Below are positions 10,653 to 25,438 of a DNA stretch of 64,000 bases, piece after piece (within the stretch, counting starts at the first letter, position 1; the number at the start of each line of letters is the position of its first letter). The notes under the pieces were generated by a model, which saw only the letters and a list, made by a program, of their open reading frames with translations, did not search any database and was not told the origin of the DNA. A program made the position numbers and the translations under genes. Where the stretch lies: positions 12,323 to 76,322 of IMG/VR virus record IMGVR_UViG_3300047678_000276; one strand, given 5' to 3'. Source of the stretch: a virus.

Positions 10653-11519
10653 TTATTTTAACCCCTGAAAAAGAAATGCTATTGTATCTACATTCCAACC
10701 ATTGCCAAGAGCTTTATATCTTGCCCCGTCGCTTACCATTGCTGTATGTCCTTCAGGAACGCCTTGAAGTCTTTCGTATTCAGTTGGAGTTAATTTTCTA
10801 ACTCTACCATCCTGGATAACTTTCTTTTGTTGATTACCTCCACAAACTGCTGTTAAGGTTTGGCATTTATGTTTTGTTGAATTAACACGCTTTAAAATAT
10901 CATGTCCATTGATTGCAAGTGTGGCGCAAACAACTTTATCATCGCCGTGGAATACAAATGGCTCTTTATAGAAATACTTCTCCGCCACAGTTGGCTCTAA
11001 TATATCTCCAAGAACCAAGGAGTTTTTTTCTGTTGGTAATTCTAACAATGGAATGTTGGTCCAGTATAATCTAGGACGACTTTGTGCCGAAAAGATCTCA
11101 GAATTGATTTGTATAGGCTCCACGCCGAGAATATCTGTGATAACTTGTTCCCATTGTTTTTTCATTACAACATTCTCCAAGAAGAAATACTTTGGCTTCA
11201 GTTCTTTTAATAATCGAACATATTCGAAAAATAATTTTGATTTCCCGTCAAACCCAGTATTAGATGAGATGGCAGGTGAAAAGCTTTGGCAAGGTGAACC
11301 GCCGATTAATAGATCAATCTGAGGGAGTCCTTGAGCTGTAACCTTGGTAACATCTCCTAATTGAACTGTTCCAGGAAAGGTGTTTTGTGTAACTTTAATA
11401 GAAGCTTTCTCGATCTCAGAAGCGAAATATTGCTTCACTTGGATTCCTAATCTCTGTAGAGCCAATTGGCCACAGCTAATGCCATCGAATAATGATAATA
11501 CGTTTATTGGTTCTTTCAT
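10653..11519 (-). CDS. DNA cytosine-5 methyltransferase
   Basis: VLSLFDGISCG, GGSPCQSFS, ENV, QSRPR, LGNGW motifs. Confidence 0.92.
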   Translation of the reverse strand: MKEPINVLSLFDGISCGQLALQRLGIQVKQYFASEIEKASIKVTQNTFPGTVQLGDVTKVTAQGLPQIDLLIGGSPCQSFSPAISSNTGFDGKSKLFFEYVRLLKELKPKYFFLENVVMKKQWEQVITDILGVEPIQINSEIFSAQSRPRLYWTNIPLLELPTEKNSLVLGDILEPTVAEKYFYKEPFVFHGDDKVVCATLAINGHDILKRVNSTKHKCQTLTAVCGGNQQKKVIQDGRVRKLTPTEYERLQGVPEGHTAMVSDGARYKALGNGWNVDTIAFLFQGLK

Positions 11520-11537
11520 ATTGGAATAGAAAGAAGC

Positions 11538-11957
11538 TTAGTTAGAACTTAAAAGTAATTTTATTCTAGCTCTTTCTTCTTCTTCTATTCTTTGTGCTTC
11601 TATTCTTTTATTTGAAGCTCTGATGTACCAAATCCAACGAGAGATATTATTTTTAAAATCTACTGGTCTGGCAACTGTTTTCTCAATCTTTAACTCAGGA
11701 ATATACTCATCATTTGGATTGAATAATTTATAACGTGTGTACCCTTTATTGTCTTTGTATTTTATCAGTTTCTTACCAACAATTAATTCAATAGCTTTAT
11801 GTTTGAAAGTTTTGTTTTGGTCTAAACTTTCATTATAAAGATTTCTAATTAAATTCTTATCTCCTTCAGAGATAAATACAAGGTCATCATTTTTCTTTGA
11901 AGCCATTACTCTTCCGAGTAAATCTTCATTAATTCTGAATTTATTAAATATTGGCAT
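11538..11957 (-). CDS. Hypothetical protein
   Basis: ORF with class-2 promoter upstream. Confidence 0.65.
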   Translation of the reverse strand: MPIFNKFRINEDLLGRVMASKKNDDLVFISEGDKNLIRNLYNESLDQNKTFKHKAIELIVGKKLIKYKDNKGYTRYKLFNPNDEYIPELKIEKTVARPVDFKNNISRWIWYIRASNKRIEAQRIEEEERARIKLLLSSN

Positions 11958-12009
11958 GGTATATTATTATACGTTAAAATTAATAAATTGTTACATTAAT
12001 GCAAAATTT

Positions 12010-12249
12010 TTAGTTCTTGCATATCAACTGCAAATACATATCTCTTGCATCCTCAATGAATTGTTCAAAAGAAATATTTTCAATATACTCTTGGTCAATT
12101 CCGTTTTTTTGGTCATAGGTCTTAACAATTAAACCAATATCATCTCTACGAATGGTAATGTTTTGTTCTGTCTTAGATAGAACAGCATACAATCCAAATC
12201 CGATTAAAGGATATACGAATGTGTTTTTTGAGGCTTTGGTTGCTAACAT
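12010..12249 (-). CDS. Hypothetical protein
   Basis: ORF with class-1 motif. Confidence 0.6.
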   Translation of the reverse strand: MLATKASKNTFVYPLIGFGLYAVLSKTEQNITIRRDDIGLIVKTYDQKNGIDQEYIENISFEQFIEDARDMYLQLICKN

Positions 12250-12304
12250 AGTTCTTGATTTATAAGAGGATAGAAATATATTTTAAACAAACTTAAAAAT
12301 TTAT

Positions 12305-12344
12305 TTTGTTTTTGTTGTAACTTTTATTATCTTTGTACGTATAA
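12305..12344 (+). promoter_or_regulatory. Overlapping host-type (TTTG-N19-TATCTTTG) and class-2 ECF-like (TGTAAC-N16-CGTATAA) promoters for the tRNA cluster
   Basis: TTTG 12305-08, TATCTTTG 12328-35; TGTAAC 12316-21, CGTATAA 12338-44. Confidence 0.7.
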
Positions 12345-12384
12345 ATTGATAAGAAACAAAAATTTTAACTATTTAAAGATATAT

Positions 12385-12457
12385 TGCGGGTTGGAGAAGG
12401 GGTTATCTCGAATGGCTCATAACCATTAGGTCGGTGGTTCGAATCCATCACCCGCTA
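12385..12457 (+). tRNA. tRNA-Met(CAT), initiator-like 1:72 mismatch
   Basis: TGCGGGT/ACCCGCT acceptor; AATGG-CTCATAA-CCATT; GGTTCGAATCC. Confidence 0.88.
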
Positions 12458-12557
12458 CTAAAAGCCTGAAAGGGCGGACACCTAAAACTACCCAATTAAA
12501 GCTAGGATATACAAACGGGGACACTAGTACAAGTTTAGGTTAAAGAAATTAAAAGAA

Positions 12558-12632
12558 ATGAACAGAATAATTAACATATTAAATGAACGTGAGGAAAGCC
12601 AGATGACTGACCTCACTTCGACTATATGTTAA
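12558..12632 (+). CDS. Putative attenuator leader peptide MNRIINILNEREESQMTDLTSTIC
   Basis: A-rich start context; GAA-CGT-GAG-GAA cluster overlaps the 5' arm of a long hairpin upstream of a terminator and tRNA-Glu genes. Confidence 0.6.
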   Translation: MNRIINILNEREESQMTDLTSTIC

Positions 12633-12656
12633 TTTAAAAATATAACTTATCAAGTC

Positions 12657-12690
12657 AAAAGGGTGGTCGCTAAGCGTCTGCCCTTTTTTT
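12657..12690 (+). terminator. Intrinsic terminator between the leader ORF and tRNA-Glu genes
   Basis: AAAAGGGTGG-tcgctaagcgt-CTGCCC followed by T7. Confidence 0.7.
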
Positions 12691-12695
12691 ATTAT

Positions 12696-12768
12696 GCTCC
12701 ATTCGTCTAGAGGCCCAGGACGATGCACTTTCACTGCATAAACACGGATTCGAATTCCGTATGGAGTA
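12696..12768 (+). tRNA. tRNA-Glu(TTC)
   Basis: GCTCCAT/ATGGAGT; ATGCA-CTTTCAC-TGCAT; TTCGAAT T-loop. Confidence 0.9.
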
Positions 12769-12777
12769 CAAATTTAT

Positions 12778-12863
12778 CGTCCGTTAGACTAGCGGTTATG
12801 GTCGCTGTGCTTTCACCACAGTGTTTCGAAAGGAGCTCATGGGTTCGAATCCCATACGGACGA
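12778..12863 (+). tRNA. tRNA with Glu(TTC) anticodon and long variable arm
   Basis: CGTCCGT/ACGGACG; CTGTG-CTTTCAC-CACAG; 17-nt variable region; ATGGG-TTCGAAT-CCCAT. Confidence 0.85.
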
Positions 12864-12877
12864 CAATTTTAACATAT

Positions 12878-13060
12878 TTATTTGTATGAGTAAAAATTGC
12901 GCAAAATGTAACTTGCACTCAACATACGTCCGTGTACATTTGTTGGAATGTGTGTAGGACTGTCCTCAACAAGTGTTTTGCTTAGTGCTTTATTTTCTTT
13001 TGAGTAAGCACCTTTGCCGTCCAAGTATGTTTTGTCAAGTGGGGTTGATTTTCTTTTCAT
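12878..13060 (-). CDS. Hypothetical protein
   Basis: ATG 6 nt after TCTAT. Confidence 0.6.
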   Translation of the reverse strand: MKRKSTPLDKTYLDGKGAYSKENKALSKTLVEDSPTHIPTNVHGRMLSASYILRNFYSYK

Positions 13061-13095
13061 ATTAATATAGAATTAAAACAGGGAGAACTTAAAAA

Positions 13096-13350
13096 TTAAA
13101 GACCGATTCTACAATCTTTTTCAATGCTCTCCTCAAAATTTCCATTGATAATAGCCTGGTCCAATATCTTATCTTCAAACTTATTCCAATCACTTGGTTC
13201 ATTTGTAAATTGAGCATTGGCAAACAAATCATTCAACTCATCAGTATTAACGTCTTCGTTGCTACCGTCATAAAATCCCAAGATTTCACATAACTCATCT
13301 AAAGTGTAATGTTTCTTTAGAATTTCTTTTTTCTCTTTGTTTGATTGCAT
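13096..13350 (-). CDS. Hypothetical acidic protein
   Basis: ATG 6 nt after TCTAT. Confidence 0.65.
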   Translation of the reverse strand: MQSNKEKKEILKKHYTLDELCEILGFYDGSNEDVNTDELNDLFANAQFTNEPSDWNKFEDKILDQAIINGNFEESIEKDCRIGL

Positions 13351-13379
13351 ATTGATATAGATATTAATTCAGGGAGAAC

Positions 13380-13621
13380 TTAAATAAATTCCTTATATTC
13401 TTTTAGGCGAGTTTCTAAATGTTTTAAACTGTTTGTTGAATTGGTGATGAATTCATCAGCTTTATGGCTTGTAGAACCATTATAAAAAGTCTCCTTAAAA
13501 AGGACATATTTATAATACGTGCTTTTATAGCCTGGAGTGTTGCTAAATGAACCCTCTCTTTTTCGATCATCCTTTCTACTGAAGGTATGATAATTGTTCT
13601 CATTTCGTCTTTAAATTCCAT
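13380..13621 (-). CDS. Hypothetical protein, probably frameshifted at a T5 run near 13484-13488
   Basis: Alternative frame (..YNGSTSHKADEF..YKEFI*) ends on the TAA of the next class-1 motif. Confidence 0.5.
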
Positions 13622-15456: not shown

Positions 15457-16299
15457 TTAAAACTTTAATAAAGGTATCAAGTGATTGTTGAAAGAATCAT
15501 CCGAACTATCAATGGTATGGCACATTCTTTTTAATTCCTGACAAGCCTTCAAAATCTTTCCTGAGCCACCAAAAGGGTCCAGCACCCAATCTCCAATCTT
15601 TGTCCCCTGAGCAACCAAAGTCTTAATCATTTCATAAGGCTTTGAAGTAGGATATTCTCTTAAGTCAGGAGTTAATTTAAAGTCCATTATCCATTGGTCA
15701 AGATTTTCAACCTTGCCTGACTTACTAAATACATAAATATGTTCCTCAGGCATCAAATACTTGCCCATATTCATGCGATTACCATTGCTCCATAGCTTTG
15801 TGTAGCTACCAATCTTATCGCATTGCTTAAGGCTTGTCTTATTGAATTGAGACATATATTTGTCATGTGCCGACTTGCTTGTCTTTCCTGAGGTGAACAT
15901 GAATAATAAAGGACTTACATCAGTTTTTAAAAGTCCTTCAAGTTTTTGAACAAATGTTCCAAATTCCTCAGGAGATATTGTGTCTCTAGCAAATAAATTT
16001 CTATTGCCACCTTTTTGACCTGCAGCTGAATATGGAATATCCAAGAAGATAAAATCAAATAAGTCCCCTTCTGAACTTATCCTATCAATAACTTCAAGGG
16101 AGTTTCCATGTTCGATTATTGCTTGCTCCGATACATATAAGCCTTTGCCCACACGTTGAATGCCTTTGCCTAGACTGTCATATACTCTCCCTCGAACAGT
16201 GGTTTTTGCGATTTCAGGAAACTTTGTATAGATTTCCTGCATTGTCATTTTATCATTGCTATTATTTAATAGCGCTAAGATTTTGCTTTTTAAACTCAT
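15457..16299 (-). CDS. N6-adenine/N4-cytosine DNA methyltransferase (beta order) with N-terminal HTH-like region
   Basis: FIFLDIPY (DPPY-like) before YPTSKP and VLDPFGGSG. Confidence 0.82.
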   Translation of the reverse strand: MSLKSKILALLNNSNDKMTMQEIYTKFPEIAKTTVRGRVYDSLGKGIQRVGKGLYVSEQAIIEHGNSLEVIDRISSEGDLFDFIFLDIPYSAAGQKGGNRNLFARDTISPEEFGTFVQKLEGLLKTDVSPLLFMFTSGKTSKSAHDKYMSQFNKTSLKQCDKIGSYTKLWSNGNRMNMGKYLMPEEHIYVFSKSGKVENLDQWIMDFKLTPDLREYPTSKPYEMIKTLVAQGTKIGDWVLDPFGGSGKILKACQELKRMCHTIDSSDDSFNNHLIPLLKF

Positions 16300-25042: not shown

Positions 25043-25438
25043 GATAAGATAGAATATGAACTGGACCAAACTTAAAAAGAAAAACCCCTCATGGACTTTT
25101 ATCGTCTACCAAAGGGGTTTTTATTATCTAGTTATCTTTATGTGATTAATAAGTAAAGAACTTATTTAGGGATTGTCTCTTGCTCTGTTCATATCCGAGT
25201 TATTAGCGGGTAATTTAATTTTTTTAATTGTTGTCACCTTTAGGAAGTATGTTTAGTGCCGTCTCTAATTCTGTTCATATAATATCTTTTTAGGCGTTTT
25301 TAATTAATTTACTTGTCAGTGGACAGTTTGTCTTGGGTGATGGCCACACCCTTAAATGTTACTTCTTCATGATTTCCAGGTTTTCGTTTGTTTGTTGCAT
25401 TAAGATAGAACGTTATTTGGCCAAACTTAAAAACTTTT

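Follow-up and report, generated by a model that had tools for sequence, protein, structure and literature searches.

The window analyzed here is a 64,000-nt stretch of DNA (positions given below refer to it unless another contig is named) and forms part of a 76-kb IMG/VR virus contig from a moss metagenome, with 33% G+C and an estimated completeness of 41%. The protein genes that flank the tRNA unit of interest are all encoded on the minus strand, which makes this unit a plus-strand transcription unit of its own. Motif search placed a Bacteroidota-type promoter at its head, at 12305..12335 (+), with TTTG at -33, a 19-nt spacer, and TATCTTTG at -7. This stretch is nearly identical in L043, a syntenic metagenome contig that was found using a profile of a neighboring gene for a 151-aa protein, and the same motif heads the homologous operon of the huge phage LR756502.1. 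The first gene is a tRNA-Met(CAU) at 12385..12458 (+), identified by ARAGORN and Rfam and conserved in L043; LR756502.1 has a tRNA-Met-like gene at the equivalent position. In both the window and L043 (4181-4254, minus strand), this tRNA has a U1-U72 mismatch atop the acceptor stem. A 1-72 mismatch is an initiator-like trait, yet the anticodon stem contains only two G-C pairs.

The tRNA-Met is followed by a spacer of 99 nt (12459..12557, +) that is A-rich immediately 5' of an ATG, is ~90% identical in L043, and has no significant structure (fold z = -0.07). Despite the absent fold, this spacer is as conserved between the window and L043 as the tRNA-Met itself, and it may have a role in processing or in ribosome loading. 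The ATG opens a leader ORF of 24 codons (12558..12632, +) that starts M-N-R-I-I-N-I and occupies the sole open frame of the three, both here and in L043. Its only Glu codons are clustered as GAA-CGT-GAG-GAA (E-R-E-E) at 12585..12596 (+), within the 5' arm of a hairpin. Based on folding, that arm (region 1) spans 12569..12600 (+), and the 3' arm (region 2) spans 12601..12634 (+), includes the stop codon at 12630-12632, and has an alternative partner in region 3. Regions 3 and 4, also defined by folding, make up an intrinsic terminator at 12653..12690 (+), which consists of an A-tract, an imperfect 10-bp GC-rich stem, and U7. Only 5 nt separate the end of the terminator from an ordinary class I tRNA-Glu(UUC) at 12696..12769 (+), and this is followed by an 87-nt tRNA at 12778..12864 (+) that also has a UUC anticodon, together with a long variable arm of 5 bp and A as its discriminator. 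ARAGORN and Rfam identify both tRNAs, and they are the genes that the terminator would gate. All of the elements described in the original prediction (promoter, tRNA-Met, 24-codon ORF, E-R-E-E cluster, hairpin, terminator, and two UUC tRNAs) were thus found where it had placed them.

There is no TAnnTTTG motif between the tRNA-Met and the tRNA-Glu, and no promoter motif of any kind that we recognized in 12459-12700. Given that there is neither a promoter motif nor room for one between the terminator and the tRNA-Glu, the conserved and intact tRNAs could be expressed only by read-through of the terminator. An Rfam cmscan of 11500-13500 (E up to 1) returned only three matches that reach the gathering score, all of them tRNAs. 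A hit to L20_leader inside the leader was rejected because it is below threshold (25 bits, compared with a gathering score of 58.7) and rests on the terminator. Three further and weaker sub-threshold hits all fall outside the leader.

Most minus-strand genes of the window lack a Shine-Dalgarno sequence. A TTCTATTCATATAA-like motif and an A/C-rich leader (ACCAACC...) recur upstream of them (e.g., upstream of the minus-strand starts at 16299, 19712, 31108, and 39128), and the combination looks like a phage-specific promoter cassette. The absence of Shine-Dalgarno sequences and the presence of this cassette, along with the TTTG/TAnnTTTG promoter of the tRNA unit, point to a Bacteroidota host. The start of the leader ORF has an A-rich upstream context similar to that of the other genes of this phage that lack a Shine-Dalgarno sequence. 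The first 11 nt of the leader (12558-12568, encoding M-N-R-I) are identical to the start of a micro-ORF at 25268-25278 (minus strand), which lies in a promoter-terminator unit near 25080-25430; taken by itself, the 11-nt match lacks significance (E = 3.3).

Folding of the leader in the window and its relatives

In the minimum-energy fold of 12540-12700, a hairpin at 12569-12634 (-20.6 kcal/mol) is followed by the terminator hairpin at 12657-12686 and its U7 (-16.8 kcal/mol), and the region of the leader start codon is unpaired. The fold of the leader region has a z-score of -4.2, and none of 200 shuffled sequences equaled its energy. A simple terminator scan did not call the terminator of the window, owing to a single internal mismatch in the stem.

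The evidence for an alternative structure is more equivocal. It had been proposed that region 2 can pair with the 5' strand of the terminator, and this 2:3 helix (12601-12623 with 12653-12671) does form when region 4 is omitted (-12.5 kcal/mol), sequestering 12 of the 13 nt of that strand; its energy, however, is no better than that of shuffled sequence (P = 0.27-0.29). Region 2 of the window pairs equally well with region 3 of L043, and part of the complementarity is therefore generic pairing of pyrimidine-rich with purine-rich sequence. Masking ribosome footprints around the Glu codons leaves 12605-12634 free, with the stop codon inside region 2 (the layout in L043 is the same). The equilibrium fold with region 1 masked still retains the terminator. 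The switch, if there is one, must consequently be kinetic, as in trp. The classical trp leader also keeps its terminator at equilibrium, the choice being kinetic there, and persistence of the terminator in the masked fold neither refutes nor supports the attenuator model. The codon evidence from this single leader is similarly slight: it has three Glu in 23 codons, the occurrence of three Glu within four codons has a probability of about 0.024 under the 7.7% Glu usage of this phage, and the leader scores higher on the codon set of one other array than on its own. Taken alone, then, the window is a weak case for attenuation. Because both the 2:3 helix and the Glu enrichment are weak here, the support derives from comparison with other loci.

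A rival explanation, which we consider unlikely overall, is a constitutive partial terminator combined with a hairpin for processing or stability. Such an arrangement would do no more than fix how much tRNA-Met is made relative to tRNA-Glu, or direct processing by RNases, and the ORF and its Glu codons would be by-products of a purine-rich arm. The stem arm that contains the Glu codons is indeed rich in purines, the stem that contains the stop codon is conserved, and both the chance-level 2:3 pairing and the survival of the terminator in the masked equilibrium fold also speak for it. It has more difficulty with L043. That contig shares 90% identity with the window between the promoter and position 12595 and is strongly diverged beyond, and despite the divergence its leader is a 25-codon ORF in the sole open frame, with five in-frame Glu codons as compared with one in each of the other two frames. 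The control codons are GAA-CGT-GAG-GAG-GAA (four Glu in five codons), with one further GAA elsewhere. A partial terminator gives no reason for only the ORF frame to remain open in the diverged half of L043, or for the Glu codons to be specific to that frame. Thus, conservation of the ORF and of its Glu codons in a homologous locus, on which the original prediction depended, was borne out, the cluster being not only kept but enlarged in this syntenic contig.

Other parts of the L043 leader changed in sequence while the arrangement persisted. The 1:2 hairpin is longer than that of the window (with an energy of -23.2), and the terminator differs in sequence, occupies the same position, and abuts the tRNA-Glu. 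The array behind it comprises three tRNAs with Glu anticodons (UUC, a long-arm UUC, and CUC), so that all tRNAs downstream of the leader in the window and in L043 carry Glu anticodons. In the nascent RNA without region 4, a 14-bp 2:3 helix (-20.7) covers the whole 5' strand of the terminator, and it surpasses shuffled sequence at P of about 0.02-0.03. The reading of the locus as trp/his-type attenuation gains support from this conservation in L043, from a terminator kept through sequence change, and from a 2:3 helix in both nascent RNAs. It should be noted that, judging from the predicted structures, the leader stop codon and the first seven codons sit in a conserved stem or spacer, and conservation of the ORF is thus partly confounded with conservation of structure. 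Moreover, only two full homologs of the window leader (those of L043 and LR756502.1) were available for comparison, and the three-way nucleotide alignment of the homologous leaders is unreliable in its 3' half. For this reason, structures were folded singly rather than as a consensus fold.

Searches for additional homologs yielded little. BLAST of 12250-12900 against 50,697 phage records retrieved generic tRNA parts only and no leader. Exact and gapped pattern scans of IMG/VR for the type II tRNA, spacer, promoter, and leader blocks gave no match, nor did pattern scans of JGI metagenomes and GTDB genomes. A search with the neighboring gene for a 139-aa protein gave no relatives, and the gene for the 151-aa protein has them at 41 IMG/VR loci, none of which is syntenic with a tRNA unit. 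Two metagenome phage contigs related through the latter gene (L060, 4519-4904; L092, 7074-7459) encode a full-length tmRNA (Rfam, 112-114 bits), the neighbors of which are a tRNA-Met and several small, promoter-led RNA units. Relatives do occur in public sequencing runs of lake water. One lake-water contig spans 12413-12689 and differs by 18 substitutions, without indels; in a second run, a stretch matching 12505-12679 differs by six substitutions. The sole leader difference displayed among these relatives is 12627 T>C. The lake-water relative is mosaic, in that its first tRNA-Glu is replaced by 79 diverged letters, with a leader that is 93% identical and a long-arm tRNA that is identical. Just 3' of the long-arm tRNA (region 12871-13084), two runs have 699 letters in place of 212 (from 12871) and 742 in place of 40 (from 12872).

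Leader codons and tRNA arrays in huge phages

The long-arm tRNA(UUC) has weak BLAST matches in the huge phages LR756500.1 and LR756502.1. The homologous operon of LR756502.1 has the same type of promoter, the tRNA-Met-like gene, a leader that begins M-N-R, the same TAACATA/TATGTTA stem as the window, and a terminator. Its leader contains three Glu and three Tyr codons, and the tRNA genes beyond the terminator are tRNA(UUC), Tyr, Glu, Tyr, Glu(CUC). Tyr codons are present solely in the homolog that has tRNA-Tyr genes, and this is again something that a partial terminator with a processing hairpin leaves unexplained.

To look for leaders objectively, we defined a rule (a small ORF whose stop codon is separated by 20-36 nt from a downstream terminator that has an energy of -14 kcal/mol or below and adjoins a tRNA array) and applied it to all tRNA units of LR756502.1 and LR756500.1 (78 Rfam tRNA matches). 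Nine huge-phage units have a terminator of this strength, and eight of them contain exactly one qualifying ORF. The statistics exclude the ninth, a unit of LR756502.1 in which the terminator is 215 nt before a tRNA-Arg, and the units of LR756500.1 with weak terminators, as these do not conform to the rule. Beyond the homologous operon, these two genomes contain seven more leaders. The strongest of them, in LR756502.1 (L129, 2438-2491), has seven consecutive Gln codons before four tRNA-Gln genes, another has Phe and His codons before a Phe-His-Phe array, and a third has a run of Ser and Arg codons before Arg-Ser-Arg. In a fourth, three ATA codons plus Gly and Ala codons precede Ile(UAU)-Gly-Gly, then Gly and Ala. 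The remaining three pair Asn, Leu, Thr, and Val codons with an array of Asn-Asn-Leu-Val-Ile-Thr and more; Asp and Pro codons with Pro-Pro-Asp-Asp-Asp; and His, Glu, Val, and Trp codons with His-Glu-Val-Trp.

Ten leaders were therefore analyzed, the eight from huge phages and those of the window and L043, and over these ten we observe both the conserved anatomy and a correspondence of leader codons with downstream anticodons. When arrays were permuted among the nine independent leaders, the observed codon match had P = 5e-6, so the proposition that the codons enriched in a leader match the anticodons downstream held well outside the locus for which it was made, in related and in huge phages. 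Each of the eight huge-phage leaders (8/8) scores top on its own array. In the ten leaders, 57 of the 258 codons in the ORF frame are cognate, and the other two frames together give 19 of 496 (P = 2e-14); this frame specificity argues for reading by a ribosome and not for direct RNA pairing. All ten leaders fold as a 1:2 hairpin plus a terminator, and with region 4 omitted all ten sequester 8-13 of the approximately 13 nt of the terminator 5' strand; the antiterminator pairing surpasses that of shuffled sequences over the ten leaders (Fisher's combined P = 2e-7). Neither the tracking of arrays by ten leaders nor the frame specificity is accounted for by a partial terminator whose ORF is a by-product.

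The arrangement is far from universal. The codons of one more leader, in LR756504.1, specify the amino acid of the tRNA-Thr(GGU) behind it but for the most part do not match it as codons. No such leader was found in LR745206.1, in Lak-B1, at the Glu array of LR756501.1, or at most units of LR756500.1, and there is none before the other tRNAs of the contig studied here (Arg/Met and Phe).

The comparison also bears on whether the stretch from the 3' end of the tRNA-Met to the terminator could simply be a separate small gene, that is, a small RNA or a 24-residue micropeptide, with the tRNA-Glu genes expressed by leakage. The window and L043 agree at ~90% over the spacer and first seven codons, M-N-R opens the leader in the window as well as in L043 and LR756502.1, and there is the 11-nt identity with the M-N-R micro-ORF near 25268-25278, all of which would suit a conserved peptide or RNA. 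Against this, the C-terminal half of the peptide is not conserved, no Rfam family fits, and the unrelated leaders of other arrays have no sequence in common and share only the rule that codons match tRNAs; we find such a gene quite improbable. Still harder to credit is a switch that does without the ribosome, with the leader RNA binding a tRNA directly (T-box-like) or acted on by a phage or host antiterminator protein. In its favor, alternative 1:2, 2:3, and 3:4 structures are common to all attenuators and riboswitches. Against it, no T-box or other riboswitch match was returned by the Rfam cmscan of 11500-13500 even at E up to 1, and the matching triplets lie overwhelmingly in one frame that runs from an ATG to a stop codon and ends at a set distance (20-36 nt) ahead of the terminator, an arrangement for which direct binding of RNA or protein has no need.

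Proposed attenuation of tRNA genes and its precedents

We think it likely that ribosome-mediated attenuation of the trp/his kind controls the two tRNA genes with Glu anticodons at this locus, although we have no expression data, and no RNA run was listed as containing the locus. Translation of the ORF, stalling of ribosomes, read-through when charged tRNA is scarce, and the physiological trigger are all inferred; the triggers suggested in the original prediction (an RloC-type anticodon nuclease, or HipA acting on GltX) are purely conjectural. Under the proposed mechanism, transcription from the host-type promoter would always yield tRNA-Met, the gene for which is upstream of the attenuator and hence ungated. 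RNA polymerase would next transcribe the 24-codon ORF, the 5' half of which (region 1, with E-R-E-E) can pair with the 3' half (region 2, with the stop codon). If a ribosome reaches the stop codon, or if there is no translation, region 2 would lie under the ribosome or be held in the 1:2 hairpin, leaving regions 3 and 4 to form the terminator, and transcription would stop 5 nt before the tRNA-Glu. If decoding-competent Glu-tRNA(Glu) is scarce, a ribosome would be expected to stall on the Glu codons, masking region 1 and freeing region 2. Region 2 could then pair with the 5' strand of the terminator (2:3), and the ensuing read-through would produce both the tRNA-Glu(UUC) and the long-arm tRNA(UUC). 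Accumulation of these tRNAs would presumably relieve the stall and restore termination, creating a demand-driven feedback loop. The geometry (a stop codon within region 2, and a Glu-stalled ribosome that frees the 2:3 partner) fits the classical model. One caveat is that additional tRNA would not cure amino-acid starvation.

If so, such phages probably make spare tRNAs on demand. A broader proposition, that phages of several lineages gate each block of tRNAs by a codon-matched leader and so measure decoding speed codon by codon, is more tentative. Replacement tRNAs would be produced only when the host pool fails (e.g., owing to anticodon nucleases or host shut-off), and the long-arm tRNA(UUC) would be a Glu decoder that escapes whatever disables the host tRNA-Glu. 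We regard this as a possibility that is, for now, doubtful as a whole.

Leader-peptide attenuators are familiar from amino-acid operons (trpL, hisL, pheL, and leuL, as well as the multivalent leaders of thr and ilvGMEDA). Like the trp/his-type leaders, the phage locus has a short ORF with clustered control codons, a stop codon beside or within region 2, and a predicted set of mutually exclusive 1:2, 2:3, and 3:4 helices, of which 3:4 is the terminator and 2:3 is no better than chance in the window taken alone. Those huge-phage leaders in which several amino acids are combined have a parallel in the multivalent leaders of ilv and thr. Unlike classical attenuators, the phage locus regulates tRNA genes and not biosynthetic enzymes, so that the operon produces the very molecule that it senses. 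It differs further in its setting, a phage that lacks Shine-Dalgarno sequences and probably infects Bacteroidota, and in having a constitutive tRNA-Met upstream in the same transcript. In the E. coli pheST attenuator (with its pheM leader), leader-peptide attenuation controls a component of the translation apparatus that serves the amino acid of the control codons. The phage locus is similar in that respect, but the target in pheST is an aminoacyl-tRNA synthetase, and the system is cellular and not viral. T-box riboswitches likewise couple the state of a specific tRNA to terminator read-through via an antiterminator helix, but no ribosome takes part in their action, they are marked by conservation of a specifier loop and the T-box sequence, and what they respond to is uncharged tRNA.

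Among published systems, the closest is the cryptic trn operon of Anabaena PCC 7120, a silent array of accessory tRNAs that is turned on when translation is impaired (PMC8421152, PMC10272220). Its control is exerted at the promoter by the repressor TrcR and is not codon-specific, and the 2021 paper on this array contains no mention of attenuation, a leader peptide, or a terminator. Countering of tRNA-targeting defenses by phage tRNAs has been put forward as a rationale for why phages carry them; to the extent that the accessible portions of these reports reveal, they address the action of the tRNAs, and nothing in those portions points to a leader-peptide sensor of transcription (PMC10264068, PMC11464382, PMC11555353). 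Our full-text literature search did not turn up any report of tRNA genes under the control of a leader-peptide attenuator.

The reason for the presence of tRNA genes in phages has been a matter of debate for decades; codon compensation is one proposal, and another is that they make up for tRNAs that host defenses have destroyed. If the attenuator model is correct, the phage itself gauges the shortage that its tRNAs should cure, and the debate about their role becomes an experiment on which condition opens the switch. Attenuation of the trp/his type would also be extended to a new class of regulated genes, one in which the sensed molecule is the product, as well as to viruses and to probable Bacteroidota hosts in which initiation is not led by a Shine-Dalgarno sequence. 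In practical terms, the rule (a small ORF, a stop codon 20-36 nt before a terminator, and matching codons) would allow regulated tRNA arrays in metagenomic phages to be annotated from sequence alone, and it could help in guessing what unusual tRNAs, the long-arm tRNA(UUC) among them, decode.

Long-arm and overlong tRNAs

A class II tRNA with a long variable arm and the Glu anticodon UUC adjoins an ordinary tRNA-Glu in four phages. In addition to the copy in the window (12778-12864), there are counterparts of 92 nt in L043 (3762-3853, minus strand), 85 nt in LR756500.1 (L123, 2512-2596), and 86 nt in LR756502.1 (L124, 3003-3088). The acceptor stems and discriminators vary among the phages, the discriminator being A in the window and U in L043. 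ARAGORN also reports overlong tRNAs beside normal ones in LR756502.1 and LR756501.1, including Lys (82-89 nt), Gln (85 nt), Asn (79 nt), Thr (81 nt), and Met (91 nt), and LR756500.1 has a tRNA-His of 84 nt. One array in LR756502.1 is itself interrupted: the Ile-Gly-Gly and Gly-Ala tRNAs behind the second leader are split by an ORF (L124, 4020-4646) that looks like a GIY-YIG homing endonuclease, and its location within a tRNA array recalls that of SegB in the tRNA region of T4.
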